Assembly (NCBI GenBank): GCA_035687405.1
Contig: DASRXR010000355.1
Coordinates: forward strand, 1 to 52,914
DNA length: 52,914 nt
Source: Polyangiales bacterium
GTDB taxonomy: Bacteria > Myxococcota_A > Polyangia > Polyangiales > JAFGIB01
Direction: 5' to 3'
Within the stretch, counting starts at the first letter, position 1; the number at the start of each line of letters is the position of its first letter. Under the pieces are notes generated by a model that did no database searches, was not told where the DNA came from, and saw only the letters and a list, made by a program, of their open reading frames with translations. Below are positions 6,374-22,932 of the stretch, in pieces. Made by a program: the position numbers and the translations under genes.

Positions 6374-6466
6374 GGGCGCGGGGCCTTTCGATGCGGTCTT
6401 CGTGGGGCGCAGAGGTGGGGAACCCGGTGAGCGGCGGACTTCACGCCAGCCGCGTAGTGCAAGGAG

Positions 6467-6751: not shown

Positions 6752-6850
6752 CTCCGGGCAGCTCGTGATCGCTTTGGAAGTTTCAATTTGTTTCCGCCGC
6801 CAGCTCGTGGCTGCGCATGATCTCACCCGTTCGGCAGCGAGACCCGAGCG

Positions 6851-8110: not shown

Positions 8111-9308
8111 TCAAACTACATCACCCGAGGAGCCCGGCAAAGGCTCGGCTCAGAGCGCACGTGCGCGCGTCGTGTTCTCGCTGCTCGGAGCGGCGGCGAT
8201 CGTTTTGTTCGGTTGGGTGTTCGTGCGCTCGGACGAAGCGCAGCCCGCCCGCGCCGCCGAGCCGAAAGCCGGCAACGACGCACCGGTTCTCGATGGCGAG
8301 CTGATTCGTTTTTCCGACGCGTTCGGAAAGCGCGCCGGCATCACGACCGAGGCGGTGACGCCGTCCGAGCTCTCGCCGTTCGTGACCGTCGGCGGAACGC
8401 TGACTCACGATCCGCGGCATCGCGCTGCGGTCGGCGCGCGCATTCAAGGTCGCGTGCGGCGCGTGTTCAAGTACCTCGGCGACGAGGTGAAGCGCGGCGA
8501 CACGCTGATCGAGATCGAAAGCGCAGAGCTCGGTCGAGCCGAAGCGGCAGTGCTCGCCGCGCGCGCGAAGGAAAAAGCGGTCGAGGCCGACATGAAACGT
8601 GAACGTCACCTCGCGGAGCAACGCGTCACAGCGCAGCGCGACGCCGAGTTCGCACAAGCCACCTACGAGGCCGCCCGCGCCGAACGCGTCGCGGCTGAGC
8701 GCGCCGTCGAAGCCCTCGGCGGCACGCTGGCCGACGATTTCGGCTTGTTGGTGTTGCGCAGTCCGATCGCCGGGCGGGTCGTCGCGTCGAGCGCAGCGCT
8801 CGGCCAAACCGTCGACCCGACCCAAACGTTGTTCGAGGTTGCCGAGCTGAGCACGCTGTGGGTCGAGCTGCACGTGTTCGAGCGCGATCTGAACGGTGTC
8901 CATCGCGGCAACGACGTGGCGATCACGACGCGTGGCGCGCACGACAAAGTCATCGCGGGCAAAGTCGACCACGTCGGCGAGATCATCGACGTGGACACGC
9001 GCACGGCGCCGATCCGCGTCGTCGTCGCAAACGAGAAGCGCGAGCTGCGCGCCGGCCAGTCCGTCGTCGCGCGCATCGACACCAGCGCCGCCGCACAAAA
9101 GGCGTTGACGATTCCGCGCGCGGCGGTCACGCGCATCGACGGCAAGTCGATGGTGTTCGTGATGCACGACAAGAACACGGTCGAGCCGCGCTCGGTCATG
9201 ACCGGTCCCGAAGATGCCGAGCGCATCGCCGTTCACGAAGGTTTACGCGAGAACGATCGCATCGTCCTCGGCGGCATGTTCGCGCTGAAATCCGAAATCT
9301 TCCGCTGA
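8097..9308 (+). CDS. Efflux RND periplasmic adaptor (membrane fusion protein, HlyD/CzcB family)
   Basis: It has an N-terminal TM (VVFSLLGAAAIVLFGWVF). GDEVKRGDTLIEIESAELG is the lipoyl-like hairpin. It also has a coiled coil and C-terminal beta-barrel motifs. Confidence 0.85.
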   Translation: MTAHDQTTSPEEPGKGSAQSARARVVFSLLGAAAIVLFGWVFVRSDEAQPARAAEPKAGNDAPVLDGELIRFSDAFGKRAGITTEAVTPSELSPFVTVGGTLTHDPRHRAAVGARIQGRVRRVFKYLGDEVKRGDTLIEIESAELGRAEAAVLAARAKEKAVEADMKRERHLAEQRVTAQRDAEFAQATYEAARAERVAAERAVEALGGTLADDFGLLVLRSPIAGRVVASSAALGQTVDPTQTLFEVAELSTLWVELHVFERDLNGVHRGNDVAITTRGAHDKVIAGKVDHVGEIIDVDTRTAPIRVVVANEKRELRAGQSVVARIDTSAAAQKALTIPRAAVTRIDGKSMVFVMHDKNTVEPRSVMTGPEDAERIAVHEGLRENDRIVLGGMFALKSEIFR

Positions 9309-9335
9309 AGACTCCGCTTGCGATCGCTTTAAATC

Positions 9336-12300
9336 ATGCTCGAAAGAATCGTAGTAGCCTCCATTCAGGCGCGCGGCGCGGTCGTCGCTCTGCTCTTCAT
9401 GTTGATCGCCGCCGGTGGCTTCGCGGCAGCGCATCTGCCGATCGACGCGATGCCGGACGTCTCGACCGTGCAAGTCTCGGTGCTCACGCGCACCGGTGGC
9501 TTGTCTGCGGTCGAGGCGGAGAACGCGGTGTCGATCCCGATCGAAAACGCGCTGAACGGCGTGCCCGGGGCGATCGAGATTCGAAGCATGGCGGACAGTG
9601 GCGTCACATCGGTCACGGTCGTGTTCAGCGACGACACCGACCCCTGGGCTGCGCGGCAGCTCGTGCTCGAACGCCTGCGCGGAATCGAAGACTTGCTTCC
9701 AAACGGCGCATCGACGCCCGAGCTCGCGCCGATTTCGAGCGGTCTCGGCGAGATCTACACGTTCGTCGTGCGGTCGAACCACCACACGCCGATGCAGCTG
9801 CGCACGTTGCTCGACTGGGAGATCGTGCCGAAGCTGCGCAGCGTCGCCGGCGTGATCGAAGTCAACACGCAAGGCGGCGATCTCAAGCAGTACCACGTGC
9901 TCGTGGATCGCGATCGCCTCGGCGCCCAAGGCATCACGCTCAGCCAAGTCGTCGACGCGCTCGAGGCCGCGAACAAGAACGCGGGCGGCGGCTACATGGA
10001 CCGCGGCTCCGAGTCGTACGTGGTGCGCGGCGAGGGATTGTTGAAGGACGAGCAGGACATCGCCGATGTCGCGCTTCGAGCGGAGCCGGGCAAGTCGCCG
10101 GTCCTCGTCCGGCACGTCGCCGAAGTGAAAATCGGTTCGGCGTTGCGCTACGGCACGGTGACGCGGGCGGGGGAGGGTGAAGCCGTCAGCGGCACGGTGA
10201 TGATGCTGCTCGGGTCGAACAGCCGCGAGGTCGTGACGGCGGTCGGTTCGAAGGTCGAAGAGATCCGGAAGTCGTTGCCGACCGGCGTGAGCATCGACGT
10301 GATCTACGATCGCTCGGACTTCGTCGGGCGCACCTTGCAGACAGTCATGACGAACCTCGCGGAAGGCATCGCGATCGTGATGGTCGTGCTGGCGTTGTTC
10401 CTCGGGACGTTGCGCGGCGCGCTCGCGGTCGTCCTCGGGATTCCCGCCGCGATGTCGGTCGCGCTGATCGGAATGCACGCGTTCGGGGTGACGGGTGACT
10501 TGATGTCGCTCGGTGCGATCGACTTCGGGTTTCTAGTCGATGGTCCGATCGTTGTGCTCGAAGCGGTGATCGCAGCGACGACGGGTCGCAAGCTGATCGG
10601 CGCTGCGCGCGCCCACGCGTATTCCGACGTGGCGAAGCTCGCGGCTCGCCCAGTCGGCTTTGCAGTCGCGATCATCATGCTCGTGTACGTGCCGCTGCTG
10701 ACGCTCGAGGGTGTCGAGGGCAAGATGTTCCGCCCGATGGCGCTCACGATGGCACTCGCGTTGTTCGGCGCGCTGGTCTACGCGATCGTGTTCTTTCCAG
10801 CCGTCCTCACGTTCCTCGTGCCGCCGAAGGCTGCGCACGGCCCGGCTTGGATGGATCGCCTCGCGACGCTGTACACGAACTTCATGCCGCGCATCATTCA
10901 GTTCCGTTATCTGTTCATTGCGGTGGCGGTCGTCGCGCTGGGCGTGACCGGGTTTCTGTTCGCGCGCAGCGGTGCCGAGTTCGTGCCGCGGATCTTCGAG
11001 GGTGATGCCGTCGTGACGATCCGGCGTGCGCCGAGCATCTCGCTCGCGCAAGCGCGCGAGCTCGACTTGGCAGCGCAAAGGGTCCTGCACACCTTTCCCG
11101 AAGTCGTGACGACGCTCGGCCTGAACGGACGGCCGGAAGTCGCAGTCGACGTGGTCGGTGCGGACAATACCGACGTGTTCGTGCGCTTGAAGCCGCTGAA
11201 GTCGTGGACGAGTGCAGACAGTTTCGATGGGCTCTCGGAAGCGTTCAAAAACGCGATCGAGAGCAAAGTGCCGGGCACTTACGTGTCGGTGTCGCAGCCG
11301 ATCGAGGACCGCACGAACGAGCTCATCAGTGGCTCGCGCGCGGATGTGTCGATTCAGATCTACGGCACGGAACTCGAAGACCTCGCGCGGCTCGCGGCGG
11401 AGACCAAAGAGATCGTGCGCGGGATCAGCGGCACGGGTGATGTCCGCGTCGAGCGCATCCTCGGGCAGCCCGTGCTCAGCGCGGTTGCGGACCGGCAGCG
11501 GATGGCTGCATACGGCGTGCGGTTGGACGACGCACTCACCGTGCTCGCTTCGACGCGGGAAGGCGTCGACGTGGGACAGATCTACGAAGGCCCGCGCCGG
11601 TTCGACTTGCGCGTGTTGCAGCCACCGTCGGAGCCGCGCCCGGAAGCGCTGGCAGAGCTCCGGGTGGAAACCATGACCGGAGAGACCGTGCGGCTCGGCG
11701 ACGTCCTGAAGGTCACGGAGGGCGAAGGCCCGGCGTCGGTGCGGCGCGTCAATCGCGAACGCGCCGTTCGCGTCGACGTGAACTTGCGCGGCCGCGACCT
11801 GCTGTCGTGGGTGCAGGAGGCACAAGGCACGGTCGGGCAGAAGCTGCCGCTCGCGGCCGGCTATCACTTGGAGTGGGGCGGCCAGTTCGAAAACTTCAAC
11901 CGTGCCCAAGCGCGCTTGAAGGTCGTGATCCCGGTCGTGGTCGCGATCATCTTCGGCATGTTGTTGATCATGTTTCGCAACGTGCGCTTTGCAGCCGCCG
12001 TGTTTGCGACGGTCCCGCTGTCGCTCGCGGGCGGAATGTTGGGCTTACTGCTCCGTGACATGCCGTTTTCGCTGTCTGCCGCTGTCGGCTTCATCGCGCT
12101 CGGCGGCATCGCCGTGCTCAACGGTGTCGTGATGGGGCAAGAAGTGCAGCACTTGCTGTCGCGGGGTGTACCGCTGGCGCGGGCGGTCTCGCAGGGCTCG
12201 AGTGGTGTGATTCGCGCGGTGCTCACGACCACGGCGGTGGCTGCGCTCGGCTTTTTGCCTATGGCTTTGTCGAGCGGTGCAGGTTCCGAGGTCCAGCGGC

Positions 12301-12470
12301 CGCTCGCGACTGCGGTGGCGGTCGGCATCGCACTCGGCGCGGTCACGACGTTGTTCGTCTTGCCCGGTCTATTCACGATCTTCCTGCGCGGCTATTCGGT
12401 GCGGCCTGCCACCCCGGATGCGGTCGAAGCCGAGCCCGCTGCAGCGAAACATACTGCTGTCGTGACCTAG
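9336..12470 (+). CDS. Heavy-metal-efflux RND transporter permease (CzcA/CusA family)
   Basis: 1044 aa. The N-terminus IDAMPDVSTVQVSVLT is like CzcA/CusA. The TM4 proton-relay signature AIDFGFLVDGPIVVLEA has the D, D and E of the HME motif DFG-DGA-VEN conserved. Confidence 0.9.
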   Translation: MLERIVVASIQARGAVVALLFMLIAAGGFAAAHLPIDAMPDVSTVQVSVLTRTGGLSAVEAENAVSIPIENALNGVPGAIEIRSMADSGVTSVTVVFSDDTDPWAARQLVLERLRGIEDLLPNGASTPELAPISSGLGEIYTFVVRSNHHTPMQLRTLLDWEIVPKLRSVAGVIEVNTQGGDLKQYHVLVDRDRLGAQGITLSQVVDALEAANKNAGGGYMDRGSESYVVRGEGLLKDEQDIADVALRAEPGKSPVLVRHVAEVKIGSALRYGTVTRAGEGEAVSGTVMMLLGSNSREVVTAVGSKVEEIRKSLPTGVSIDVIYDRSDFVGRTLQTVMTNLAEGIAIVMVVLALFLGTLRGALAVVLGIPAAMSVALIGMHAFGVTGDLMSLGAIDFGFLVDGPIVVLEAVIAATTGRKLIGAARAHAYSDVAKLAARPVGFAVAIIMLVYVPLLTLEGVEGKMFRPMALTMALALFGALVYAIVFFPAVLTFLVPPKAAHGPAWMDRLATLYTNFMPRIIQFRYLFIAVAVVALGVTGFLFARSGAEFVPRIFEGDAVVTIRRAPSISLAQARELDLAAQRVLHTFPEVVTTLGLNGRPEVAVDVVGADNTDVFVRLKPLKSWTSADSFDGLSEAFKNAIESKVPGTYVSVSQPIEDRTNELISGSRADVSIQIYGTELEDLARLAAETKEIVRGISGTGDVRVERILGQPVLSAVADRQRMAAYGVRLDDALTVLASTREGVDVGQIYEGPRRFDLRVLQPPSEPRPEALAELRVETMTGETVRLGDVLKVTEGEGPASVRRVNRERAVRVDVNLRGRDLLSWVQEAQGTVGQKLPLAAGYHLEWGGQFENFNRAQARLKVVIPVVVAIIFGMLLIMFRNVRFAAAVFATVPLSLAGGMLGLLLRDMPFSLSAAVGFIALGGIAVLNGVVMGQEVQHLLSRGVPLARAVSQGSSGVIRAVLTTTAVAALGFLPMALSSGAGSEVQRPLATAVAVGIALGAVTTLFVLPGLFTIFLRGYSVRPATPDAVEAEPAAAKHTAVVT

Positions 12471-15400
12471 CGCTGGCCTGACTCGAGCGCACGTGTGCGC
12501 AGGAACGGATGCGTGCTCTGAACCGCCGCTTCGGCTTTTGGAGCGGCGGGTGCGATCTCCAACCAGCAGCGCGTGCGCTGAAACGGATAACTCGGCAGCG
12601 CGATCTTGGGGCGTTCGAAACCGGCGTGGAACGCGTTGAAATCGAGCGCCGAACCTTGCTCGTAGAGCGCAGCTACGTTTTGCAGAAGTGCGAGGTAGCT
12701 GCAGCCTTCGGCGGCAACTTGGACCTGTCGTTCTGCGTCGAGTTGCTCCAGCGCAGCCAGGTGGCGCTCCGCGTCTGCCGGCGCGTACAAGTGCGCCAGC
12801 CAGTATTTTTGGTCGAGCGTCTCCCGAGTCGTGACGACGCGCCCGTGGCTTGCAGCCAGGAGCGGCAGGGACGGTGGCGTGTAGTCGACCGCCGCGAGCG
12901 CGGTCTTGAACTGGTGCAGGGTCTGACGCACGCGCGCGCCGGGTACGAGCGACCGGAGCAGCAGCTCGCGCCGCGCGGCGAGCCGGAGCGCGTCGTGCCA
13001 TCCGAGCGCACCTGCCGCACAGGCGGCTGCAAACTCGCCGGTCCCGCTGCCCGCGATGATGGCCGGCGCGACTCGCCAATACTCGAGCAAAGTGTGCAAC
13101 GCGTACTGCAGAACCACGCCGCTCGTCTGCGGGAACTCGAGCCTCGGCCCTGATTCGTTGGACAGCAGCTGCGGCAGCGGATCAGTATCGAGCACGGCCT
13201 CGACGATCCGCGCTCCGCGCTCGAGTGCGCGCTGGAACATCGGCTCCGCTTCGTAGAGCTCGCGAGCGACTCCGGCACGTGGCACGCGCTCATTGAACAC
13301 GAACACGATGCGCGGCTCGCGGCGGTGCGCGGTCAGTGTGGCTGTGCTCGCGATGCGCGCGAGCCCCGCCCGCATCTCCGAAGGGTCACTGGCGACGATC
13401 GCCGCGCGGTAGGCGAAGTGATCGCGACCCGCGTTCATCGTGAAGCAGACCGACGACAGCGTCTCCTCGGAGATCCGCGGGAGGAGGTCGGCGGCGAGCT
13501 CACGCAGGGCCTCGGGATCTTTCGCGGAGAGCGCGAGTAGCTCGTAGCGGCGCGTGATGCTCGGCGCTCGAGCGATGCGCTCGGAGCTCTCACGCAACAC
13601 GACGTGTGCGTTGGTGCCTCCGAAGCCGAATGCACTGATCCCGGCAAAGCGCGTGCGCGCCGAGCGTGGCCACGGCACAGCGCGCGCCGGGATCGCGAGC
13701 CCGAGTGAGTCGAGGTCGAGGTGCGGGGAGACGTTCTTCAGGTGTAGATGTGCCGGCAGAGATTCGTGGCTGAGCGCGAGGGCAGTCTTGATCACGCCCG
13801 CGATCCCCGACGCCGCTTCGAGGTGCCCGAGATTCGTCTTCACCGAGCCGACGTAGCAGCGCGAACCGCCCGTGCGCGCGAACACTCGGCCGAGCGCGCC
13901 GAGCTCGACAGCATCCGACACCGGCGTTCCGACGCCGTGCGCTTCGATGTAGTCGAGCTGATCTGGACCGACGTTTGCGGAGTGCAATGCGGCTCGCAGC
14001 AGCCGCTCTTGTGCGGGCAGGCTCGGCGCCATCAATCCGTTCGAGCAGCCGTCGTGATTGGTCGCAGAGCCTTCGACGCGCGCGTAGATCCGATCGGCCG
14101 CAGCTTCGGCATCGGAGAGGCGCTTCAGCACGATGACCCCGCAGCCTTCGCTGCGCACGAACCCGTCTGCGCTCGCGTCGAATGTCTTGCAACGGCCATC
14201 CTTTGCGAGCGCGCGAGACTTGGCGAAAAAAACACCCGGCTCGGGCGCAAGCACCGCGTTGACTCCGCCCACGATCGCGACACTGCACTCGCGCCGGCGT
14301 AGACTTTCGCTCGCGAGGTGGAGCGCGACCAGCGAGGACGAACACGCGGTGTCGATCGTCATGCTCGGTCCGCGCAGGTCGAGCGTGTAAGAGACGCGAT
14401 TGGCGACGACACTCTTCGCGTGGCCCGTCCCGTAGTCCGCATCGATCAGCGACAGCTGACCGGCGTGCAAGAGCGCGTAGTCGTTCGTGCACACGCCCGC
14501 AAACACGCCCGCGTCCGTCTCGCGCAAAGTCGAAGCTGGAATGCCGGCGTCTTCGAGCGCGGCCCACGTCAGCTCGAGAAACAAACGCTGCTGCGGGTCC
14601 ATCCGGGCGGCTTCGCGCCTCGAGACGCCGAAAAACAGAGGATCGAAGCGATCGATGTCTTCGATGAAGCCACCGAACTGCGCGCCACTCGCCGCGAGCT
14701 CCGGGCGGTCCGGCGGCAACTCACCGATGGCATCGCGCCCAGACGCCAGAAGATCCCAAAAGCCTTCGAGGTTTGGAGCCCCGGGGAAGCGGCAACTCAT
14801 GCCGATGATCGCGATCGAGTCTCGGTTGTCGTGTGGCTCCGGACGTTCGCGCCGGTCGCTGCGCGCGCGAGGCGGAGGGGTCGCGCCGGCGGAGAGTGCG
14901 GTCGCTAGCGCGGCGATCGTCGGCTGTTCGTAACTGAGGGTGGACGGAAGCGCCTCGTCCAAAAACTCTTCGAGCGCCGCGGTCAGCTCGGCCGCGTGCA
15001 GCGAGTCGATGCCGTAGCGCGCGAGCGGCGCGTGCTCGTCGATCTCGCTCGGTTCCAGCTTTGCGAGTTGTGCGACTCGGGACCGGAGGAATTGCGTGAT
15101 CGCGTCGTGGCGAGCGCCGCCGACGGGTTGCGTACGCGTCACGGCGCGACCGCGGTCCCCGTTCGAGATCTCGCCGTTGAGCGCAGACAGCTCTTGGGTC
15201 TTTACACTCGCGTCCCAGCGCGCAACCACGTCCAGTCCGCCGTCGAGGTACGCGCGCTTCATGGTCTGCCGCTGCACCTTGCCGCTCGCGGTCCGGGCAA
15301 CGGTGCCGCGCTTCACGATTGCGCAGGCGTGCAGCGACAACCCGTGCAGTTGGCGGACGGTCTCGAGCACTTCGGAGATGAGAGTCTCGGCGTCGGCGTG

Positions 15401-16870
15401 CTGGCGGTGATCGATCTCCTGGACGACGACGACGCGCTCTTGGCCGTCGACCTCGACTGAAAACGCGGCGCCGGGCTCGGCCCGAAGTGCGGGATGGATC
15501 GCTTGCACCGTCCGCTCGATGTCGTGCGGGTAGTGGTTCTGACCGCGGATGACAATCAGATCGCTTAGTCGCCCCGTCACGAACAAGGCCCCGTTCAGGA
15601 CGAAACCGAGGTCGCCAGTGCGAAGGAACGGCCCTTCGTCCAAACCGGCGATACGCGCCTGAAAGCGTTCGCGCGTCGCTTCGGGTCGCTTCCAGTAGCC
15701 GGTTGCGACGCTGGCACCTGACACCCAGATCTCGCCGATCTGACTGTCGCCGAGTTGGATCTGACTGTCAGGGTCTACGATCCGTACGCGGGTCGCCGTC
15801 GCGGACTGGCCACAACTGACGACAGACACGACGCGACCGCCGGCAGTCCCGCGCCGCGCCTGATGGTGTTCGAGGGCGGTCGCGTCGATCGTTTCCACGA
15901 CGGGCAGTGTTTCCGGTGAGCCGCCTGCGACGAACAGCGTAGCTTCGGCGAGGCCATAACAAGGAAAGAAGGCGCGGCGCTCGAAACCACTCGAAGCGAA
16001 CGCGGTCGCGAACGCGTCGAGCGTGTCCGGATGAATCGGTTCCGCGCCGTTACACACGACGCGGAGACTCGACAGGTCGAGCCCGGCGCGTTGCGCCTCC
16101 GGGATGCGACGCACGCATAGATCGAAAGCGAAGTTCGGAGCCATCGTCACGCTGGCACGCCGCTCGCTGATTTCGGCGAGCCAGCGCCGCGGCCGGCGAA
16201 TGAACGACTCGGGCGGCAAGATGTACGTCGCGACGCCGGCGAACAACGGCCAGAAGATGCCGCCGAGCAGCCCCATGTCATGGTACGGCGGTAACCAGGT
16301 TACGAGAACGTCGCTCGAGCTGAGTTGGGTAGCGTCCGTGATCGCGACCAAGTTCGCGGTCAGCTGCCGCAAGCTCACCGCAACGCCCTTCGGCGTAGAC
16401 GTCGAGCCCGATGTGTATTGAAGCAGACACACGGCGTCGGGATCGAGCGACCATGTGAGCTGCGGTGCCTCGAGTGCGCCGGCGAGCAGTGTCTCGAGCC
16501 GAAGCGTTTCGACTTGCAACACTTCACTCGTCGCGCCGCCTACGGTCAGCGCGCAACGCACGCCCGCGTCCGACAGGATCGATGCGATGCGCTGATTCGC
16601 GCGCGACAGGCGCAGCGACGTCGCAGGATAGGCCGGCACCATGATCGCTCCGGCATACACGCAGCCGAGCAGGCATGAGACGTAGTCCAAACCCGCGGGC
16701 GCTGCGACGAGCACCGGCTGCCCAGCTAGGCCACGCGCACGTAGCGCGTGCGCAACGCAGAGTGCTCTCGTCCGCAACACGTGCAGCGGGCAACCATCGA
16801 AAGTCAGCGTGTCGGGCGCCGACAGGAAGCGCCCTTCCAATACGTCGATCAACGTCAGCGGGTGAGTCAT
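12467..16870 (-). CDS. Polyketide synthase with lipid-loading module: FAAL - ACP - KS - degenerate AT - DH N-terminal stub
   Basis: This is track ORF 12467..16939. I prefer the ATG at 16870 (MTHPLTLIDVLEG), giving 1467 aa. Domain motifs are listed in the domain features below. The stop shares the tetranucleotide CTAG (12467-12470) with the convergent czcA-like stop. Confidence 0.9.
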   Translation of the reverse strand: MTHPLTLIDVLEGRFLSAPDTLTFDGCPLHVLRTRALCVAHALRARGLAGQPVLVAAPAGLDYVSCLLGCVYAGAIMVPAYPATSLRLSRANQRIASILSDAGVRCALTVGGATSEVLQVETLRLETLLAGALEAPQLTWSLDPDAVCLLQYTSGSTSTPKGVAVSLRQLTANLVAITDATQLSSSDVLVTWLPPYHDMGLLGGIFWPLFAGVATYILPPESFIRRPRRWLAEISERRASVTMAPNFAFDLCVRRIPEAQRAGLDLSSLRVVCNGAEPIHPDTLDAFATAFASSGFERRAFFPCYGLAEATLFVAGGSPETLPVVETIDATALEHHQARRGTAGGRVVSVVSCGQSATATRVRIVDPDSQIQLGDSQIGEIWVSGASVATGYWKRPEATRERFQARIAGLDEGPFLRTGDLGFVLNGALFVTGRLSDLIVIRGQNHYPHDIERTVQAIHPALRAEPGAAFSVEVDGQERVVVVQEIDHRQHADAETLISEVLETVRQLHGLSLHACAIVKRGTVARTASGKVQRQTMKRAYLDGGLDVVARWDASVKTQELSALNGEISNGDRGRAVTRTQPVGGARHDAITQFLRSRVAQLAKLEPSEIDEHAPLARYGIDSLHAAELTAALEEFLDEALPSTLSYEQPTIAALATALSAGATPPPRARSDRRERPEPHDNRDSIAIIGMSCRFPGAPNLEGFWDLLASGRDAIGELPPDRPELAASGAQFGGFIEDIDRFDPLFFGVSRREAARMDPQQRLFLELTWAALEDAGIPASTLRETDAGVFAGVCTNDYALLHAGQLSLIDADYGTGHAKSVVANRVSYTLDLRGPSMTIDTACSSSLVALHLASESLRRRECSVAIVGGVNAVLAPEPGVFFAKSRALAKDGRCKTFDASADGFVRSEGCGVIVLKRLSDAEAAADRIYARVEGSATNHDGCSNGLMAPSLPAQERLLRAALHSANVGPDQLDYIEAHGVGTPVSDAVELGALGRVFARTGGSRCYVGSVKTNLGHLEAASGIAGVIKTALALSHESLPAHLHLKNVSPHLDLDSLGLAIPARAVPWPRSARTRFAGISAFGFGGTNAHVVLRESSERIARAPSITRRYELLALSAKDPEALRELAADLLPRISEETLSSVCFTMNAGRDHFAYRAAIVASDPSEMRAGLARIASTATLTAHRREPRIVFVFNERVPRAGVARELYEAEPMFQRALERGARIVEAVLDTDPLPQLLSNESGPRLEFPQTSGVVLQYALHTLLEYWRVAPAIIAGSGTGEFAAACAAGALGWHDALRLAARRELLLRSLVPGARVRQTLHQFKTALAAVDYTPPSLPLLAASHGRVVTTRETLDQKYWLAHLYAPADAERHLAALEQLDAERQVQVAAEGCSYLALLQNVAALYEQGSALDFNAFHAGFERPKIALPSYPFQRTRCWLEIAPAAPKAEAAVQSTHPFLRTRALESGQR
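12470..12517 (-). other. N-terminal stub of a PKS dehydratase domain (HPFL motif) at the extreme C-terminus
   Basis: The protein ends ...QSTHPFLRTRALESGQR*. HP[LF]L-x-R is the canonical start of PKS DH domains. Confidence 0.55.
12575..13315 (-). other. Degenerate, shortened acyltransferase-like domain (active-site Ser lost)
   Basis: FVFNERVPRAGV replaces F-x-F-x-GQG-x-Q-x-x-GM. GSGTGEFAAACAAGAL (GSGTG encoded at 13037-13051) replaces GHS-x-GE. AASH replaces HAFH/YASH. The post-AT linker SYPFQRTRCWL is retained. Confidence 0.75.
13586..14818 (-). other. Ketosynthase domain with an intact Cys-His-His triad
   Basis: IAIIGMSCRFPGA, DTACSSSLVALHLA (Cys codon at about 14342-14344), EAHGVGTPVSD, KTNLGHLEAASG and FGFGGTNAHVVL. 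Confidence 0.9.
14885..15109 (-). other. Acyl carrier protein domain (ACP1)
   Basis: LARYGIDSLHAAELTAALEEF. The phosphopantetheine Ser in DSL is encoded at about 15002-15004. Confidence 0.85.
15206..16870 (-). other. Fatty acyl-AMP ligase (FAAL) domain
   Basis: LLQYTSGSTSTPKGVAVS, WLPPYHDMGLLGGIF, MAPNFAFDLC, FPCYGLAEATLFV, GEIWVSGASVATGYWKRPEAT, LRTGDLGFVLNGALFVTGRLSDLIVIRGQNHYPHDIE and RTASGKVQR together form a FadD32/FAAL-type motif set. Confidence 0.85.
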
Positions 16871-17065
16871 TGAGTTACAGCGCAAGCGAAGACGAACCCG
16901 TCCGAGCGCGACCTGATGGCGCACGGCAGGCGAGTGCAAAGTGTGGCGTGTCAGCGCACCAGCAGGGGCGAGCGCAATTACGCCATAGCCAACAAGTGTC
17001 TACATGCCTAGCCGGCTACGACCGGTCAAGCGAAATGCGTCGGGATGCGTTGGAATAAACATTCG

Positions 17066-17095
17066 CGTGCGCGTTCGTTCGTTCGAACGCGCACG
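17066..17095. promoter_or_regulatory. Perfect 12-bp inverted repeat CGTGCGCGTTCG-N6-CGAACGCGCACG in the divergent PKS/NRPS promoter region
   Basis: Read directly from the sequence. The arms are at 17066-17077 and 17084-17095 with spacer TTCGTT. It lies about 195 nt from the PKS ATG and about 170 nt from the NRPS ATG. Confidence 0.45.
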
Positions 17096-17138
17096 TCGTG
17101 TCGAGGACGAGCCGAACATCCATCGATCGAGACATTGC

Positions 17139-17227
17139 AACGCGGCTTAGCAACGCGCCTTGCGTCACATTGATAGTTACATCGGTGTGTCCGCGACCAA
17201 TGCGGCTTGCGACCGAACGCGGCTTAG
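17139..17227 (+). repeat. Three copies of a 12-mer upstream of the NRPS gene: AACGCGGCTTAG (17139-17150), AATGCGGCTTGC (17199-17210), AACGCGGCTTAG (17216-17227)
   Basis: Read directly from the sequence. Two copies are exact and one matches 10/12. All are in the same orientation and lie within 130 nt of the ATG at 17267. Confidence 0.5.
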
Positions 17228-17266
17228 TCGTAAGGGTTCAATCCAATCCGGTTAGTTGGTGTCGCA

Positions 17267-18052
17267 ATGGCTCATGCGTTCGAGTTGTCCGCAGAGATAG
17301 TCGAATCATTGTCTAGTCCGCGATTTGACTGTCAGACGGAGTTGGGGTGGGGAGGGTTGCTCGAGTGGTCGATCGCGGTGCGTCGCGTGACGTCGAACGA
17401 GAACGCAGAGTCGGACGCCGCCTATCCAATCCGGCTAGGGCGCGTCACGTGGCACGCGGCGGAGCCGACGGCGGGCGAGCCGCTGTATTGCCGGACGCAG
17501 CCAGGCGGGCCGTTGCTCGTAACCACCGGACCGCGCAGCGGTGGGCGGTTGCTGCTGAGCGCGACATCGGCTGAAGCAGAGCCGGTCGCGCGTTTACCTT
17601 CGGTCGCATTCCCAATCGGCGAGCTCGGCCAACGCGTCGGCGAAGGACAGTTCTACGCGGAGCTCACCGCGCGCGGGTTTGAAATTGAAACAAACGCGCG
17701 CGTTGTCGAGTACGCATGCTTCAGGCAAGACGCCGCGGTCGCGGTGCTCGCCGCGCCGTCGAATCTCGAAGCCGGGTTCATCCTCGGTCCGAGCGCGCTC
17801 GACGCCGCGCTTTACGTTGCGTTCGCCTACGCGCAGCGCGCGATCGGAGAAGCCAGCGAGCCGCCGCGGTCGGGCCCTTTGCCCGCGATCGAGGATGTGG
17901 TCGTAGTCGCTTCGGGAGTTCCGCGGACGATCATCGTTCGTGCCAGACCTCGCACGACTCGAACGCAGCTCGACGTAAGCCTGCTGGACGTCCACGGCAT
18001 GGAGCTCGCCAAACTCGAAGGTGTCACGTTCGAGAGTCGCGCGGCCGAAGCC
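17267..18052 (+). other. PKS dehydratase-like double-hotdog region, catalytically degenerate
   Basis: AFELSAEI aligns to the [FW]E-x-x-LS that follows HPLL. RFDCQTELGWGGLLEW sits where L-x-DH-x-V-x-G...PG-x-x-x-LE is expected, with His replaced by Cys. FYAELTARGFEIETNA aligns to YGP-x-F. GPSALDAALYV aligns to HP-ALLD-x-x-x-Q, with the Asp retained. Confidence 0.55.
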
Positions 18053-21000
18053 ACGCAGCGGACTCTCAATCTCACATGCGTCTTCATCGAGATCGTTCGC
18101 GCGTGTCTGCCGGCAGTCGACTTCGAGCCGACCACCTCGCTGCCCGGACTCGGCGCAAGCTCGATCGACCTCGTGCGGATCGGCAGCCTCGCGAGCGAGT
18201 GGTTGGGCTGGATGCCGCCGCTCGCGGACTTCTTGCGAACGCCGACTGTAGCGGGCCTCGTACAATTGTATCTCACTCGCGACGCGCGTCCGGGTGGGCG
18301 CGGGACACTGGACATTCTCAGCGCGACAGAACGGCAGCTCTGGTTTCTCGAGCAGGCCACCCACGCAGCCGGTGCCTATAACGAGGGCGTCGCGTGGCGG
18401 ATCCGCGGCGCGCTCTCGATCGACGCGCTCGAACGTGCGCTCGTGCACGTACAGCAATGTCATCCGGCGCTCCGCAGCTACTTTCCTGCTCCGGACGGCG
18501 TCCCAGAGCGCAACCTCGACTGGCGACAGTGCGAGCTCGAGCTGATCGAGACACCGGCGGACATTCGAAGCCAACCCGAGCTACTCGATGACTACGTCGC
18601 GGATCAAATCTGCCGCCCGTTCGATCTCGAGCACGCACCACCGTTTCGCTGCGCGCTGCTGTTCCACGGAGCCGGTGATTCGACAATCGTGCTCAGCGCG
18701 CATCATCTCATATGCGACGCCTGGTCATTTGCGCACGTCGTCGTTCCGGAGTTGCGCGCGGCGTATCGGTCGCTGCTCGAGTCGCCTGAGCTGCAGCTGC
18801 CGGTCGCGAGCGTCGAGAGCGAGCTCGCCCGTCACGAGCTCGACCCAGCCGAACGAAAGCGGTCCGAGGAGCACTTCCGCCGGACGCTCCGCGAGTTGCC
18901 GCACGTGCTCGACTTTCCGTTCGACCACCCGCGACCCGCCGTGCAGCTGCATCGCGGCGCGTGTGTACACCGGCCGCTCACGGCCGCGCGCTGGAGCGCA
19001 GTGAAGGCGCTCGCGCGCGAGCTCGGGCAATCGCCGTTCGTCGTGTGCCTCGCTGCGCACGAGATCTTGCTCCAGCGGTACACGCGCAGCGATGCGTTTT
19101 GTGTCGGTGTTCCGGTCTCGCTGAGGCGCGACTCCGAGGACGCGCGAAAGGTCGGCTGTTTCGTCAATCTCAGCGTGGTTCGCGCACGGGTCGATTCGGC
19201 GCATACGTTCGACGCGCACTGCGCGCGTGTCCGAGAGGACTTGATCGACACCCTCCAGTTCGATCGACTCGCGCTCGGTGAAATCGTTCGCGCGGTTGCA
19301 CCGGTCCGATCGCTCAGCCACACGCCGCTCGTGCAAGCCGTCTTCGGTTACCGCGAGCTCGCGGGCGCAACACTGGAGCTTCCGGGTGTGATCGCCACGC
19401 CGCTCTTCGTGCACAACCGTCGCGCGAAGTTCGACCTCACGCTCTCCATCGACGACTGCGGGAACGAAGCGGAGCTTAGCCTCGAGTACGCGTCGGACTT
19501 GCTCGAACGACCCAGCGCGGAGAGTCTGCTCGATCACTTCGAAGCCCTGCTCGACGAGTTGGCACACAATCCGCGTGTGCGGATCGGATCGCTTCAGCTA
19601 GCGAATCGTCGCGAGCAAAAACAAATCGCGAGCTACGAGCACGGCCCGGTTCGCACAGTGCCGCCGAGCGAGCTGGGCCTAGCCACGCTGGCACGCTCCC
19701 CCGATGACGTGATCGTTCTGCGCACAAGCTCGCGCGAGTGGAGTGCCGCAGCGCTTCGCCAGTTGACGTCACGGATCGCCACCGCGCTTCAGTGCGCGGA
19801 CGTTCGACCGGGCGAGCTCGTCGTCGTCTGCGCACCGCGAAGTGCAGAATGGGTGGCAGCTGTGCTCGCGATCCTGGAGGTCGGAGCCGCGTACGTCCCG
19901 CTCGATCCGCGACAGCCTGACGCGCGCATTGCGCACGGCATCGCCCGCTCGGGTGCGCGGCTCGTGATCACCCTCGATGCTGCGTTCGTGCCCGCGCCTG
20001 ACTCCACGCTGCGGACTCTGGAGCTGCGAGGGCTCGCGAGCTCGACGCCAGTGCAAACGCGCGCGATCCCGCCTGCCGATCCGCACCATCCGGTCTACGC
20101 GATCCTCACTTCCGGTTCGACCGGCGCGCCTCGCCTCGCTGCGGTCGCGCACGCGGGTTTTTCGAACCTCTTGTCGTTCTACTCGCAGCTGCTGTCGCTC
20201 ACAGCGGCGGACCGCGTCCTGCTTGCGACCTCGGTCGGCTTCGACCTCACGCAAAAGAATGTATTCGCTGCGCTACTCGCGGGCGCCCAGCTCGTCATCG
20301 ACGACTCGGACTCCTTCGACCCCGAGCGACTCGCGGAGCTGATCGAGCAGCGCGGTATCACCGTGATCAACTGCACCCCCACACTCGCGTATGCACTCGT
20401 CGCAAGCGCAGCCGCACTCGACTTCCGCAAGCTTCGCTCGGTGCGTGTGCTCGTCCTCGGCGGCGAACCCATCGACGAGAAACAGCTGCGCGCCTGGACG
20501 GCGCACCCGAGTTGCTCTGCGCGCATTCTGAACTCCTACGGCCCGACGGAGTGCAGCGACGTGGTCGCGACCAGCGAAGTGCAGGCCGGCGTTCCGTGTG
20601 GCACGAACCTCGGACGCCCAATTCCCAACGCGCGCTGTCGCGTCGTCGACTGCTCAGGTGCAGTCGCAGGCATCGGCGTTCCGGGAGAACTGTGTCTCGC
20701 CGGCACGCCGCTCGGCCTCGGATACGTCGGCGATCCCGCGGCCACGGGGACGAAGTTCGTTCGCGAGCACGGGACTCGCTTCTACCGTACGGGCGACCTG
20801 GTTCGCTGGAATCACGCCGGCGAGCTGCAGTTCCTCGGTCGGCTCGACGCCCAAGTGAAGATTCGTGGCTACCGCATCGAGCTCGCTGAGATCGAAGCGG
20901 CGCTCGAACTGCGACCTGAGGTCAGCGACGCAGTCGTGATCAGTCGGCCCGATCCGCGCGGTCAGCCGATGCTCGTCGGCTACGTCGTGCTCACAGCTTC

Positions 21001-21484
21001 AGTCGAGGGCGCCGATCGCGCACTCGAACGCTTGCTGCGTCGCGACCTCGCGCGGAACCTCCCGAGCTACATGATCCCGCGGGCGATCGTGACGATCGAT
21101 CGCCTGCCTCGCACCGCCAGCGGCAAGCTCGATCGGAACGCGCTGCTCGGACGCGCTTGGAATCCTGAACCGCCGAGCCTTCAGGATCGCGAACCGAGCG
21201 ATCCGATCCTCTCGCGCGTTCGCGCGGCATTTTGTGACGTGCTCGGTGTGGCCGGGATTGCGAGCGATGCGGACTTCTTCGAGCACGGAGGCCATTCGCT
21301 TGCGGCGGTCGCCCTCGTCGCGCAGCTCGAAGACGAGCTCGGCTTGCGCCTGCGTCCGGCCGCCGTCTTCGAGCGGCCGGTCCTTCGCGATTTCGCGTCG
21401 CATTTAGCGGAGTTACTCGATCAGGGACCGGACAGCGACGGCCACGCGATCAGCGCACCCCGGACTACGTTGAACGCGATCTGA
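17267..21484 (+). CDS. Hybrid PKS/NRPS protein: DH-like domain (without its N-terminal HPLL segment) - carrier - C - A - PCP; no TE/R domain
   Basis: Track ORF of 1405 aa. Motifs are given in the domain features below. Confidence 0.9.
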   Translation: MAHAFELSAEIVESLSSPRFDCQTELGWGGLLEWSIAVRRVTSNENAESDAAYPIRLGRVTWHAAEPTAGEPLYCRTQPGGPLLVTTGPRSGGRLLLSATSAEAEPVARLPSVAFPIGELGQRVGEGQFYAELTARGFEIETNARVVEYACFRQDAAVAVLAAPSNLEAGFILGPSALDAALYVAFAYAQRAIGEASEPPRSGPLPAIEDVVVVASGVPRTIIVRARPRTTRTQLDVSLLDVHGMELAKLEGVTFESRAAEATQRTLNLTCVFIEIVRACLPAVDFEPTTSLPGLGASSIDLVRIGSLASEWLGWMPPLADFLRTPTVAGLVQLYLTRDARPGGRGTLDILSATERQLWFLEQATHAAGAYNEGVAWRIRGALSIDALERALVHVQQCHPALRSYFPAPDGVPERNLDWRQCELELIETPADIRSQPELLDDYVADQICRPFDLEHAPPFRCALLFHGAGDSTIVLSAHHLICDAWSFAHVVVPELRAAYRSLLESPELQLPVASVESELARHELDPAERKRSEEHFRRTLRELPHVLDFPFDHPRPAVQLHRGACVHRPLTAARWSAVKALARELGQSPFVVCLAAHEILLQRYTRSDAFCVGVPVSLRRDSEDARKVGCFVNLSVVRARVDSAHTFDAHCARVREDLIDTLQFDRLALGEIVRAVAPVRSLSHTPLVQAVFGYRELAGATLELPGVIATPLFVHNRRAKFDLTLSIDDCGNEAELSLEYASDLLERPSAESLLDHFEALLDELAHNPRVRIGSLQLANRREQKQIASYEHGPVRTVPPSELGLATLARSPDDVIVLRTSSREWSAAALRQLTSRIATALQCADVRPGELVVVCAPRSAEWVAAVLAILEVGAAYVPLDPRQPDARIAHGIARSGARLVITLDAAFVPAPDSTLRTLELRGLASSTPVQTRAIPPADPHHPVYAILTSGSTGAPRLAAVAHAGFSNLLSFYSQLLSLTAADRVLLATSVGFDLTQKNVFAALLAGAQLVIDDSDSFDPERLAELIEQRGITVINCTPTLAYALVASAAALDFRKLRSVRVLVLGGEPIDEKQLRAWTAHPSCSARILNSYGPTECSDVVATSEVQAGVPCGTNLGRPIPNARCRVVDCSGAVAGIGVPGELCLAGTPLGLGYVGDPAATGTKFVREHGTRFYRTGDLVRWNHAGELQFLGRLDAQVKIRGYRIELAEIEAALELRPEVSDAVVISRPDPRGQPMLVGYVVLTASVEGADRALERLLRRDLARNLPSYMIPRAIVTIDRLPRTASGKLDRNALLGRAWNPEPPSLQDREPSDPILSRVRAAFCDVLGVAGIASDADFFEHGGHSLAAVALVAQLEDELGLRLRPAAVFERPVLRDFASHLAELLDQGPDSDGHAISAPRTTLNAI
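18074..18271 (+). other. Carrier protein domain (ACP2/T)
   Basis: LPGLGASSIDLVRIGSLASEWL. The candidate phosphopantetheine Ser codon is at about 18161-18163 (residue 299). Confidence 0.7.
18314..19600 (+). other. NRPS condensation domain
   Basis: LSATERQLWFLEQ, AYNEGVAWRIRGALSIDALERAL, and SAHHLICDAWSF, which is the HHxxxD motif at 18701-18718. Confidence 0.85.
19640..21140 (+). other. NRPS adenylation domain (substrate not assigned)
   Basis: LEVGAAYVPLDP, YAILTSGSTGAPRLA (an A3 variant with PRL instead of PKG), FDLTQKNVF, NSYGPTE, GELCLAGTPLGLGY, YRTGDLVRW, GRLDAQVKIRGYRIELAEIE and LPRTASGKLDR. Confidence 0.88.
21205..21405 (+). other. Peptidyl carrier protein domain (terminal)
   Basis: DADFFEHGGHSLAAVALVAQLEDELG. 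The protein stops about 25 aa later with no thioesterase, reductase or terminal C domain. Confidence 0.85.
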
Positions 21485-21729
21485 ATCTCCTGCCGCCACC
21501 AGCTGCAGTCGTTGATCGCTTTCGGCGCCCGCCTGTCCGAAAAAGCTGCTTTCAACTCGACAGAACGGCCATGGCGGGTGAGCACGCTGCGTTCGTATGC
21601 TTTTTTGGCCCCGTATTCACGGGCGTTTTCGCGGGCTTGATTGTTTCGTCTACTAGCGACCGATGCACCGCGTGCTAGCGTGCGCAAGATCCTCACGCGC
21701 GATTGCGCGCGGAGAAACAGGCGTTATCC

Positions 21730-22932
21730 ATGACGAAGCTTGAACGATGTTTGTGTGGCTGCTTGTTGATGGCCGCCGTCAGCGGCTGCGGTGCGGACCA
21801 GGACACTAGCGGCCGTACTGGAGCTACAGGCGGTCCGAGAGGCGGCTTCGGCACGGCGGGCGGTAGCAGCCCATCGAAGCCCGGCTCGTTTGGAGACGGC
21901 GTCGCGGGAGGTCTAGGCCTCGCTCCGATCACGCCTTCCGACATGCGGCCATCGACGATCTCCGATCCGAACACCTGTGCGGCGGCTTCGGTGCGCGCGT
22001 CGCGCGTCACGCCCACCGTCTACTTGGTGGTCGATGGCAGCGGGAGCATGAACGCCGTCTTCGGCGGCATGGGCACGCGCTGGCAGGTATTGCGTGAAGC
22101 CCTCGTCGGCACGAACGGAGTCGTTCCGAAGCTCGAGAGCGTCGTGAACTTCGGCATGACGATCTACAGCAACAACGACCCGATGATGTGCCCGGCAGTC
22201 AAAGAGGTTAAGCCCGCGCTGAAGAACTATCAGGCGATCATGGCTGGCTATCCGGCGATGGAAACCGGTGGCGGCACTCCGACCGGCGAAGCGCTGCAGA
22301 AGGTCGTGGACTCGCTGCCAGACTTCAACACCGTCGCGCCCGACCAGGTCGTGAATGCGCCGCCGATCATCGTGCTCGCTACCGACGGTGAGCCGAACGG
22401 CTGCGCGGCCGGTGTCATTTGCAACTGGGTCGACTGGGCCAACTGCTTGGGCCAGCTCCTCGGTTCGCTCGCGAACGCAGCGCCGACGTACGACTCCACG
22501 CTGGCAGCAGTGCGCGCCGCGAAGGCCAAGGGCATCGCGGTGTGGGTCGTCAGCCTTGCGGATGGTCTGAACGCGATTCCGGATCTGCAGAAGACCGCGA
22601 ACATCGGTGCGGGTCTCGCCGACAACGCGAGTCCGGGTGCGATGATTTACTCGCCGAAAAACCCCGACGAGCTGACTGGCACGCTCACCAAGCTGATCGG
22701 CGATGTCGTCTCGTGCGACGTCTCGCTCGAAGGCTCACTCGTCGTGGCGCGCGCCTGCGAAGGCACGGTCACGATGAACGGCGTTCCGCTCAACTGCAAC
22801 AACGATGAAGGTTGGAAGCCCGTCGACGAGAAGCACATCCAGCTTCAAGGCAGTGCTTGCACGAAGTTCAAGTCGGATCCGTCGATCGTCTTGGACGCGA
22901 GCTTCCCGTGCGACGTCGTCGCGCCGCAGTGA
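21730..22932 (+). CDS. Secreted von Willebrand factor A (vWA) domain lipoprotein with a Cys-rich C-terminal region
   Basis: I prefer the ATG at 21730, giving MTKLERCLCGCLLMAAVSGC with lipobox AVSGC. The MIDAS motif is VYLVVDGSGSM, with GGGTPTGEAL and LATDGEPNGC. The C-terminal ~90 aa contain several Cys (CDVSLEG...ACEG...LNCNNDEGW...SACTKF...FPCD). Confidence 0.8.
   Translation: MTKLERCLCGCLLMAAVSGCGADQDTSGRTGATGGPRGGFGTAGGSSPSKPGSFGDGVAGGLGLAPITPSDMRPSTISDPNTCAAASVRASRVTPTVYLVVDGSGSMNAVFGGMGTRWQVLREALVGTNGVVPKLESVVNFGMTIYSNNDPMMCPAVKEVKPALKNYQAIMAGYPAMETGGGTPTGEALQKVVDSLPDFNTVAPDQVVNAPPIIVLATDGEPNGCAAGVICNWVDWANCLGQLLGSLANAAPTYDSTLAAVRAAKAKGIAVWVVSLADGLNAIPDLQKTANIGAGLADNASPGAMIYSPKNPDELTGTLTKLIGDVVSCDVSLEGSLVVARACEGTVTMNGVPLNCNNDEGWKPVDEKHIQLQGSACTKFKSDPSIVLDASFPCDVVAPQ

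Follow-up and report, generated by a model that had tools for sequence, protein, structure and literature searches.

A 52,914-nucleotide stretch of a Polyangiales bacterium genome (contig DASRXR010000355.1 of assembly GCA_035687405.1; referred to here as the window) contains two long, divergent open reading frames (ORFs), which encode a polyketide synthase (PKS) primed by a fatty acyl-AMP ligase (FAAL) domain (gene 1, minus strand) and a nonribosomal peptide synthetase (NRPS; gene 2, plus strand). The two proteins very probably constitute a functional assembly line for a lipo-amino acid. The new point is the occurrence of homoserine specificity, predicted for the adenylation (A) domain, together with the absence of a release domain. 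In the best overall explanation, which we put forward tentatively, the pair, which is conserved in uncultured soil Polyangiales, joins a 3-oxoacyl chain extended once, by two carbons, to homoserine and the conjugate is released as a lactone. A first-pass annotation of this DNA had described the two divergent genes and their domain strings, with an intact ketosynthase (KS), a dead acyltransferase (AT) and a degenerate dehydratase (DH) split between the proteins, and these features were all borne out by Pfam and NCBIfam profiles, motif analysis and AlphaFold2 and Foldseek. Its proposal that a β-ketoacyl chain is handed over to one amino acid is supported by the domain logic, and its general idea of a small lipid that is possibly a signal is supported as well.

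A homoserine code in a line without a release domain

Gene 2 (1405 aa) encodes a complete NRPS module. Pfam detected two PP-binding stretches, a condensation (C) domain (residues 351-787, E 3e-57) and an A domain (AMP-binding 809-1153 and AMP-binding_C 1208-1287), and the second carrier is the terminal peptidyl carrier protein (PCP, 1317-1380). The signature motifs of the C domain (HHxxxD), the A domain (core motifs, Lys517) and the PCP (GGxS) are present; the individual sequences are given in Table 1. All aligned gene 2 members retain the serine of the upstream acyl carrier protein (ACP2), the HH motif of the C domain and the PCP serine.

The ten specificity positions of the A domain were read by anchoring on the A4, A5 and A10 motifs. 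Residues 993, 994, 997, 1035, 1063, 1065, 1090, 1098, 1099 and 1287 spell the code DLKNVGSDVK, so that the specificity code could be extracted computationally, as the first-pass annotation had advised, and it is a homoserine signature. Among the relatives that we refer to as the homoserine clade, 15 NRPS sequences extend over the whole A domain; all of them conform to DLKNVG[ST]D[VI]K, and the partial sequence P0018 has DLK at the three code positions that it covers. An alignment-free regular expression returned the same code in the clade members that are present as database proteins (12 of 12). DLKNVGSDVK is named letter for letter as a signature of homoserine or homoserine lactone activation (PMC12283262), and the one-residue variant DLKNFGSDVK is the Stachelhaus code for homoserine in a study of laxaphycins (PMC7524897). 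In a BLAST search with the whole A domain against ~490 NRPS proteins, the five best non-family A domains carry DLKN-type codes, their substrates being themselves predicted. Based on these matches, the gene 2 A domain probably activates L-homoserine. A high score of LgrA among the PDB entries was considered as a link to glycine modules and rejected, as the score is the sum of two domains.

Gene 2 stops ~25 aa past the PCP and no release domain follows. Neither protein has a match to a ketoreductase (KR), enoylreductase (ER), thioesterase (TE), reductase (R), heterocyclisation (Cy) or terminal C domain in Pfam or NCBIfam. The NCBIfam match of gene 2 to MxcG reaches 343 bits against a cut-off of 2300 and ends at profile position 1052 of 1442, and the terminal R domain is absent. 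The window was scanned with Pfam profiles over ORFs of at least 150 aa, and none of the 30 further gene-like ORFs contains a thioesterase, phosphopantetheinyl transferase (PPTase), trans-acting AT, autoinducer synthase or LuxR-type receptor; a six-frame motif scan of the window found no MbtH. The Autoind_synth profile in particular is absent from all scanned ORFs, and the pair does not belong to the LuxI family. The earlier statement that the line has no release domain, and the window no thioesterase, MbtH, PPTase or trans-AT, agrees with these scans.

The FAAL-PKS protein has a dead acyltransferase

The gene 1 ORF, on the minus strand, extends from 16939 to 12467 and encodes 1490 aa if read from its TTG codon. 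A database protein from a 379-kb ENA contig, P0121 (1467 aa), is 100% identical and begins at the ATG at 16870. Therefore, gene 1 was taken as 12467-16870 (1467 aa), and the ATG is almost certainly the true start. Both ORFs are otherwise as first annotated; only this start has been moved.

In the 1490-aa numbering, Pfam identified an AMP-binding domain (55-416) with a DIP2-like C-terminal part (460-571; E 2e-59), a PP-binding domain (ACP1, 617-682), a KS (707-1067, E 6e-88) and a KS-AT linker (1072-1197). The best NCBIfam matches of the first domain are fatty-acid--AMP ligase families, at 340-405 bits. The E-values exclude chance as the source of the domain assignments. The Acyl_transf_1 match spans just positions 12-159 of the 319-position profile.

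We aligned gene 1 with its relatives (31 sequences: 30 family members and the outgroup P0133). The DSL serine of ACP1 is kept in all 31, and so is the KS triad, formed by Cys in DTACSSS, His in EAHGVGT and His in NLGHLE. The AT active site reads GSGTGE in place of GHSxGE, a substitution of Gly for the catalytic Ser, and ~90 aa have been deleted, which removes the small subdomain with the HAFH histidine. Both changes are found in 30 of the 30 family members; the outgroup has GHSAGE and a full domain. The cis-acting AT is thus predicted to be catalytically dead. Downstream of it, SYPFQRTRCWLE is a normal post-AT linker, followed by STHPFLRTRALESGQR up to the stop codon. The sequence THPFL, 13 residues ahead of the stop, corresponds to the HPLL motif in the first strand of a PKS dehydratase.

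A dehydratase fold divided between the two proteins

The remainder of the dehydratase lies at the N-terminus of gene 2, where the PS-DH profile of Pfam gave a weak match (119-263, E 0.004). An AlphaFold2 model of residues 1-345, built with 12 orthologues, shows a double hotdog followed by a four-helix carrier (pLDDT 82, pTM 0.84), with Ser299 of ACP2 at the start of the helix 299-313. When the model was compared with solved structures by Foldseek, every top match was a PKS dehydratase domain (E ~1e-14; target-normalised TM scores 0.65-0.71). The weak DH assignment is therefore confirmed at the level of the predicted structure. In this domain (DH0), the catalytic His of HxxxGxxxxP has been replaced (FDCQTELG) and the LDAAL motif is partly kept; its aspartate motif LDAAL[QH] is retained in most orthologues.

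The division of the domain is a property of the whole family. HP[LF]x occurs 9-47 aa before the C-terminus in every full-length family member aligned (27 of 30), and the NRPS partners start at the next DH element (FEL..., then a degenerate HxxxGxxxxP region) and continue with ACP-C-A-PCP. The spacing over the junction of gene 1 and gene 2, HPFL-14 residues-FEL, matches that of a continuous DH. Since both the split tail and the matching partner start are found in the whole family, including the members that carry an R domain, the cut between DH strands 1 and 2 appears to be old and common to the family. In the simplest history, the present layout resulted from an ancestral FAAL-ACP-KS-AT-DH-ACP-C-A-PCP-R gene that was cut by an inversion between these two strands. 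We hypothesize that the HPFL tail strand of gene 1 completes DH0 or docks on it, holding both proteins together.

Conservation and selection

Gene 2 has full-length orthologues of 1394-1429 aa with 51-97% identity, which are all metagenomic and, where named, come from Polyangiales; the gene 1 orthologues are 60-100% identical. In at least 10 metagenomic Polyangiales lineages, with identities as low as 51%, both ORFs (~1400-1500 aa) have stayed open. A pattern scan of the genome collection with a 5-sequence alignment returned one locus only, in the same Polyangiales metagenome-assembled genome as locus L004, and no cultured carrier. A profile search of 1.84 billion representative proteins, dominated by multi-module NRPSs, added only P0241, P0243 and P0247.

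Comparing the window with five orthologues, the ratio of nonsynonymous to synonymous substitution rates (dN/dS) is 0.09-0.62 across all domains, rough values given that dS is near saturation in the pairwise comparisons. It is lowest in the KS (0.09-0.21), followed by the FAAL domain (0.15-0.24), the C domain (0.19-0.37), the A domain (0.27-0.34) and the dead AT (0.26-0.39), and highest in the dead DH (0.43-0.59). The shortened pair without R domain thus seems to be under purifying selection, as expected for a pathway that has been remodelled and is not decaying.

Loss of the reductase and exchange of the C-A-PCP module

The architecture of gene 1 is also found, at 46-51% identity, in ~30 proteins of 1466-1613 aa from Polyangiales and Myxococcales assemblies. 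Their NRPS partners were fetched locus by locus; a homologue search with the NRPS of locus L005 returned only itself and generic NRPSs. In four distant loci (L005, L007, L010 and L011), the NRPS half is ~370-420 aa longer. Three of these proteins (L005, L010 and L011) end in a redox-competent thioester reductase of the short-chain dehydrogenase/reductase type, with the motifs TGATGF[LV]G and Y..[ST]K. In L007 (4288-9606, minus strand), the last 382 aa form a different domain, with a Rossmann-like GLGSMGHG sequence and no Pfam match at E<0.01, which may be a release or tailoring domain.

The codes of all four longer proteins are non-homoserine: L005 and L007 have Gly-type codes (DILQLGMVWK and DILQMGMIWK), and L010 and L011 have two unassigned codes. 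DILQLGMIWK has been assigned to Gly (PMC12283262). A neighbour-joining tree of the PKS halves places the homoserine clade, as a monophyletic group, among R-bearing lineages, which argues that the R domain is ancestral. In the A domain BLAST search described above, the R-bearing relatives come at ranks 248-377 of 378 hits; the C-A-PCP module of the homoserine clade therefore seems to have been swapped in rather than inherited in place.

The sister clade was sampled with a single locus, L012 (5537-14638), in which the NRPS gene is flipped, lying upstream of the PKS gene and co-directional with it (DH0-ACP-C-A-PCP, then FAAL-ACP-KS-AT0, where AT0 denotes the degenerate AT). Inversions seem to recur at this locus.

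Genes for a FecCD permease, an ABC ATPase and a periplasmic binding protein, as in iron-siderophore uptake systems, are found in L005 (14757-16569), L006 (8497-10108) and L007 (18425-21226). This set accompanies the Gly-coded relatives with longer NRPSs (the R-bearing L005, L006, which is close to L005, and L007), and there is none in the window. It hints that the Gly-coded relatives may make a metal-binding lipid.

Neighbouring genes and the intergenic region

The PKS and NRPS genes are adjacent in 11 of the 11 loci in which both sides are visible, head-to-head in 10 and co-directional in L012. In the relatives with 51-97% (gene 2) or 60-100% (gene 1) protein identity, the shared neighbourhood consists of GCS2 and GATase_4 genes on one side of the pair and, on the other, genes for a lipoprotein with a von Willebrand factor A (vWA) domain, a Ser/Thr kinase with an AAA_16 domain, a tetratricopeptide repeat (TPR) protein, a thiolase and an acyl-CoA ligase. 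The window has this neighbourhood, plus an insertion (3512-12470) between GATase_4 and gene 1 that comprises a sigma-54 response regulator, a histidine kinase and a CusCBA/CzcCBA-type heavy-metal efflux operon of the resistance-nodulation-division (RND) family (TIGR00914, CusA/CzcA family; 919 bits against a cut-off of 701). At its end, the RND pump gene overlaps gene 1 by the stop codons (12467-12470). Most orthologous loci lack the operon, and in L001 (4955-5206) just an 83-aa C-terminal fragment of the pump is left at the matching place. The RND operon is thus the variable, inserted element and the pair the conserved one; because the fragment in L001 lies at the same position, the operon appears to have been gained and then lost within the clade. 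A functional tie of the pair to the heavy-metal RND operon was considered and rejected, as the operon is missing from most orthologous loci.

The flanks are those given in the first-pass annotation, a heavy-metal RND efflux operon and a secreted vWA lipoprotein. Its description of the pair as orphan and accessory-looking does not hold: the GC content of the pair is the same as that of the flanks, the pair occupies the same syntenic position in relatives, and it is the RND operon that is inserted.

The vWA lipoprotein gene lies 3' of gene 2 (21703-22932, plus strand). The protein has a lipobox (VSGC), a metal-ion-dependent adhesion site motif (DGSGS) and a Cys-rich C-terminus, and it shows weak similarity to CglB, an adhesin of gliding motility (NCBIfam E 2.6e-10, under the cut-off). 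Only in the homoserine clade, which lacks the R domain, is the gene located between the NRPS and kinase genes; the R-bearing relatives and L012 do not have it. The possibility that it is a diverged reductase was rejected, since BLASTP finds no similarity to the lost R domain.

The Ser/Thr kinase (~1270 aa, fused to an AAA_16/STAND-type NTPase; 22936-26754, minus strand) adjoins the 3' end of the NRPS gene. It is found there in every family locus (L001-L005, L007 and L009-L012; 46-100% identity of the PKS), even where the other neighbours differ, and L007, L010 and L012 have a second copy on the other side. This persistence suggests a functional tie between the kinase and the pair, e.g. in regulation or sensing.

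Following the TPR gene, the window encodes an acetyl-CoA C-acyltransferase of the housekeeping type, a FadD-like acyl-CoA ligase and an APH-family kinase (28653-32983). The acyltransferase matches NCBIfam PRK07108 (635 bits against a cut-off of 615). Most loci have a thiolase gene close to the pair, and in L012 and L013 it immediately follows the PKS gene, which probably reflects synteny with genes of fatty acid metabolism. Further along the window (38050-42554) is a set of genes for polysaccharide assembly and export, unrelated to the pair, that encodes a sugar transferase with a CoA-binding domain, a Wzz-like chain-length determinant and a Poly_export/SLBB outer-membrane exporter.

Genes 1 and 2 are separated by a 396-bp divergent promoter region. 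In six loci whose proteins are 51-67% identical, blocks of this region are identical or nearly so, for example GACAGTTACATCGGTGT, GCTTGCGA, TTAGTCGTAAG, GGTCAAG and GAATAAA. The region also contains a perfect 12-nt inverted repeat (17066-17077 and 17084-17095) and four copies of CAACGCGGCTT. These blocks and repeats are candidate operator sites. No sigma-70 consensus, terminator or Rfam match was found in 16871-17266.

Table 1. Positions of the two genes, their domains and the promoter region in the window
Feature	Position	Strand	Composition or basis
Gene 1	12467..16870	-	FAAL-ACP1-KS-dead AT-post-AT linker-DH strand-1 tail (predicted)
FAAL domain	15227..16777	-	Pfam and NCBIfam
ACP1, phosphopantetheine site GIDSL	14894..15091	-	Pfam, alignment
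KS, Cys-His-His	13739..14821	-	Pfam, alignment
KS-AT linker and degenerate acyltransferase (AT0)	12671..13726	-	Pfam, alignment
Post-AT linker (SYPFQRTRCWLE) and C-terminal tail with HPFL (12500-12511)	12470..12670	-	Translation, alignment
Divergent promoter region, 396 bp	16871..17266	.	Conserved blocks, palindrome
Gene 2	17267..21484	+	DH0-ACP2-C-A (homoserine code)-PCP (predicted)
Degenerate dehydratase DH0, without strand 1	17267..18061	+	AlphaFold2 model, Foldseek, alignment
ACP2, LGASSIDL, Ser299 at 18161-18163	18062..18301	+	Pfam, alignment, model
Condensation domain, HHLICDA	18317..19627	+	Pfam, motif
Adenylation domain, code DLKNVGSDVK	19691..21127	+	Motif anchoring, regular expression, BLAST
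Terminal PCP, GGHSL	21215..21406	+	Pfam, motif

Discussion

Combining the domain assignments and the code, the following assembly line can be proposed. Judging from its family membership, the FAAL domain would adenylate a free fatty acid and load it onto ACP1. Gene 1 has no carrier downstream of its KS and gene 2 begins with DH0-ACP; the KS would therefore need ACP2 in trans, condensing the chain once with malonate on this carrier of the other protein, and ACP2 would serve both as the acceptor carrier for the KS and as the donor for the C domain. Because the cis AT has lost its Ser and the subdomain that bears the His, malonate would be loaded onto ACP2 in trans, most simply by FabD. The chain would remain 3-oxo, since there is no KR and the DH lacks its catalytic His. 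The split dehydratase, with strand 1 contributed by the PKS and the remaining fold by the NRPS, could hold the two proteins together. The A domain would activate L-homoserine, in line with the 10/10 code match, and the C domain would form N-(3-oxoacyl)-homoseryl-S-PCP, which is the most likely intermediate.

A homoseryl thioester carries its own nucleophile, and a release domain would thus be dispensable: on chemical grounds, the γ-hydroxyl of homoserine could attack the thioester, and N-(3-oxoacyl)-L-homoserine lactone would leave. Activated homoserine is known to cyclise readily to the lactone, as homoserine-AMP does in tRNA-synthetase editing. That the lactone is in fact what is released is plausible to us but still somewhat doubtful. 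The first-pass annotation had proposed Dieckmann cyclisation or hydrolysis as the outcome; the proposal was incomplete, because the code is the published homoserine signature and γ-lactonisation would be a more direct release without TE than either. The lactone and a tetramate can be regarded as two faces of the same intermediate. For the homoserine clade as a whole, the full proposal is that these Polyangiales make N-(3-oxoacyl)homoserine lactones, or tetramic acids derived from them, on a thiotemplate whose halves are held by a split DH and from which homoserine releases itself; taken in its entirety, it is a possibility that we regard with some reserve.

Several points weigh against release of a homoserine lactone. 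The substrate, the extension and the release are all predictions made from sequence, and Stachelhaus-code matches may mislead for rarely characterised substrates. In none of the loci does the pair have a linked gene for a malonyl-loading enzyme, PPTase, LuxR-type receptor, lactonase or exporter. Dieckmann cyclisation is a further route open to an N-(3-oxoacyl)aminoacyl thioester. Furthermore, L012 is R-less as well, but it has the unassigned, non-homoserine code DASMLVLIWK and an intact NRPS, so that loss of the R domain can persist without homoserine. A strict correlation between the missing R domain and the homoserine code was for this reason rejected as proof. The R domain may have been lost before homoserine arrived, in which case an unlinked enzyme may release the products of both clades, and the pairing of the two traits is a single evolutionary event with little statistical weight.

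L012 also favors release by an enzyme encoded elsewhere, such as a type II thioesterase, an α/β-hydrolase or an acyltransferase, with the lipo-amino acid N-(3-oxoacyl)homoserine or a lipid containing it as the product: without R domain and homoserine code, L012 would use a route of release that is independent of the side chain. In addition, the PPTase and the malonyl loader are essential partners that are necessarily unlinked anyway. However, no conserved candidate lies beside the pair in the 11 loci, where the recurrent neighbours are the Ser/Thr kinase, the TPR protein, the housekeeping-type thiolase and the acyl-CoA ligase, and a hydrolase would need to outrun an intramolecular lactonisation. 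We consider such a release unlikely on balance. It is somewhat less likely still that the code prediction is wrong and that a different small polar amino acid, such as Ser or Thr, is loaded by the A domain, giving another N-acyl amino acid that is possibly metal-related. The FecCD/ABC/binding protein genes near the pair in L005-L007 and the CusCBA operon that abuts gene 1 in the window would fit such a product, but the code matches the published homoserine signature at 10 of 10 positions and the whole domain clusters with DLKN domains. The FecCD genes accompany only the Gly-type relatives with longer NRPSs, and the adjacency of the RND operon appears incidental, given its absence from most orthologous loci and the remnant in L001.

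Dieckmann release from the same line and intermediate would give a 3-acyl-5-(2-hydroxyethyl)tetramic acid, either spontaneously or aided by the DH-like hotdog domain. The β-ketoacyl-aminoacyl-S-PCP that it requires follows from the domain logic (no KR, a dead DH, a terminal PCP), and the conserved LDAAL[QH] aspartate motif of DH0 in most orthologues could point to a role for this domain. On the other hand, the window encodes no TE, R*-type or TrdC/SlgL-type cyclase, DH0 has lost its His and is the least constrained domain, and attack by the primary γ-hydroxyl needs no enolate and would be expected to be faster. Direct Dieckmann release is therefore improbable in our view. The 3-oxo-AHLs (AHL, N-acyl-homoserine lactone) are said to have been found by Kaufmann et al. 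in 2005 to rearrange non-enzymatically to exactly this tetramic acid, so that lactone and tetramate could coexist.

The first-pass annotation had also allowed for a decaying remnant of a larger cluster. In this form of the idea, an inversion would have broken up a larger PKS-NRPS gene, the reductase would have been lost, and the resulting pair would make nothing. Distant relatives do carry a terminal R domain that is missing here, the AT and the DH are dead, and the DH is split over two genes. Yet the ORFs are open in at least 10 lineages, and the split and the dead AT are common to the whole family, including members with an intact R domain, which marks them as old and tolerated features. With dN/dS well below 1 in all domains, with the catalytic and carrier residues that are needed conserved, and with conserved intergenic blocks, decay is very improbable.

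The proposed line, with lactone release, can be compared with several known systems. MycA of the mycosubtilin and iturin pathways has the order FAAL-ACP-KS-aminotransferase-carrier-C-A-PCP. The pair resembles it in that a FAAL loads a free fatty acid, one KS extension gives a β-keto chain, malonate is supplied in trans and the chain is handed directly to C-A-PCP. However, MycA is one polypeptide that converts the β-keto group to a β-amine and feeds a long NRPS ending in a TE, whereas the pair consists of two divergent genes, would keep the 3-oxo group, adds one amino acid and has no TE. Uncharacterised Chloroflexota proteins (P0171, P0180 and P0159) have the same order, FAAL-ACP-KS-AT-ACP-C-A, and 42-43% identity to gene 1, but they are single proteins with a full-length AT (profile positions 2-316 of 319) and no DH remnant. 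A further comparison is with the split C-A-PCP-R pairs of L005, L010 and L011, which resemble MxcG in their reductive release. They have the same FAAL-ACP-KS-dead AT-HPLL tail, the same DH0-ACP partner start and the same kinase; they differ in their Gly-type or other codes and in having an R domain, which is missing from the homoserine clade with its swapped-in homoserine module and additional vWA lipoprotein gene.

Tetramate-forming PKS-NRPS systems share the β-ketoacyl-aminoacyl-S-PCP intermediate with the pair. They include the synthetases of polycyclic tetramate macrolactams with a TE, fungal synthetases with an R* domain, and lines served by the stand-alone Dieckmann cyclases TrdC, SlgL and KirHI; some bacterial lines end at a bare PCP. 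Across the 11 loci, neither a known type of Dieckmann cyclase (TE, R* or stand-alone) nor an unassigned conserved neighbour is found beside the pair. In gladiolin-type trans-AT PKSs, subunit junctions between KS and DH carry DH-docking tails. The boundary in the pair likewise separates a KS protein from one that has a DH at its start, with a short C-terminal tail proposed to bind the DH, but the cut falls within the DH fold, behind strand 1, the protein upstream of it is derived from a cis-AT module, the DH is dead and the genes are divergent.

The predicted product class is shared with LuxI (and with LuxM/AinS and HdtS), to which the pair has no sequence or mechanistic relation. LuxI uses acyl-ACP and S-adenosylmethionine (SAM), and the lactone is formed from the methionine moiety. 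Unlike this, the route of the pair would be ATP-dependent thiotemplate chemistry with free homoserine. We found no report of an NRPS/PKS-made AHL or of homoserine lactone off-loading in the open-access full-text literature, which is absence of evidence and not proof of novelty. The study that is cited for homoserine and homoserine lactone activation (PMC7756705, cited by PMC12283262) does not discuss lactone release.

The architecture can thus be described as a variant of FAAL-primed PKS/NRPS initiation that is AT-less in practice, adds one amino acid, has no release domain and is split inside a domain. The split FAAL-PKS/NRPS pairs of Polyangiales represent a previously undescribed family, of which the pair in the window is a conserved, selected and remodelled member. 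Whatever its product, the pair offers a natural megasynthase that has been cut inside a domain fold and yet appears functional, which bears on subunit docking in PKSs and NRPSs and on the engineering of split lines. It also offers a case of module swapping, in which, while the PKS chassis stayed constant, a homoserine module lacking a reductase would have taken the place of a Gly module that had one.

If the proposed lactone release is true, it would represent a fourth route to AHL-type signals, independent of LuxI and SAM and invisible to luxI-based genome mining. It would give a compact two-gene system for producing defined 3-oxo-AHLs from free fatty acids. To our knowledge, Myxococcota is a phylum not known for AHL signalling. 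The capacity for AHL quorum sensing in genomes and metagenomes is inferred almost entirely from luxI homologues, and a thiotemplate route would mean that AHL-type molecules can come from organisms that are scored as non-producers.

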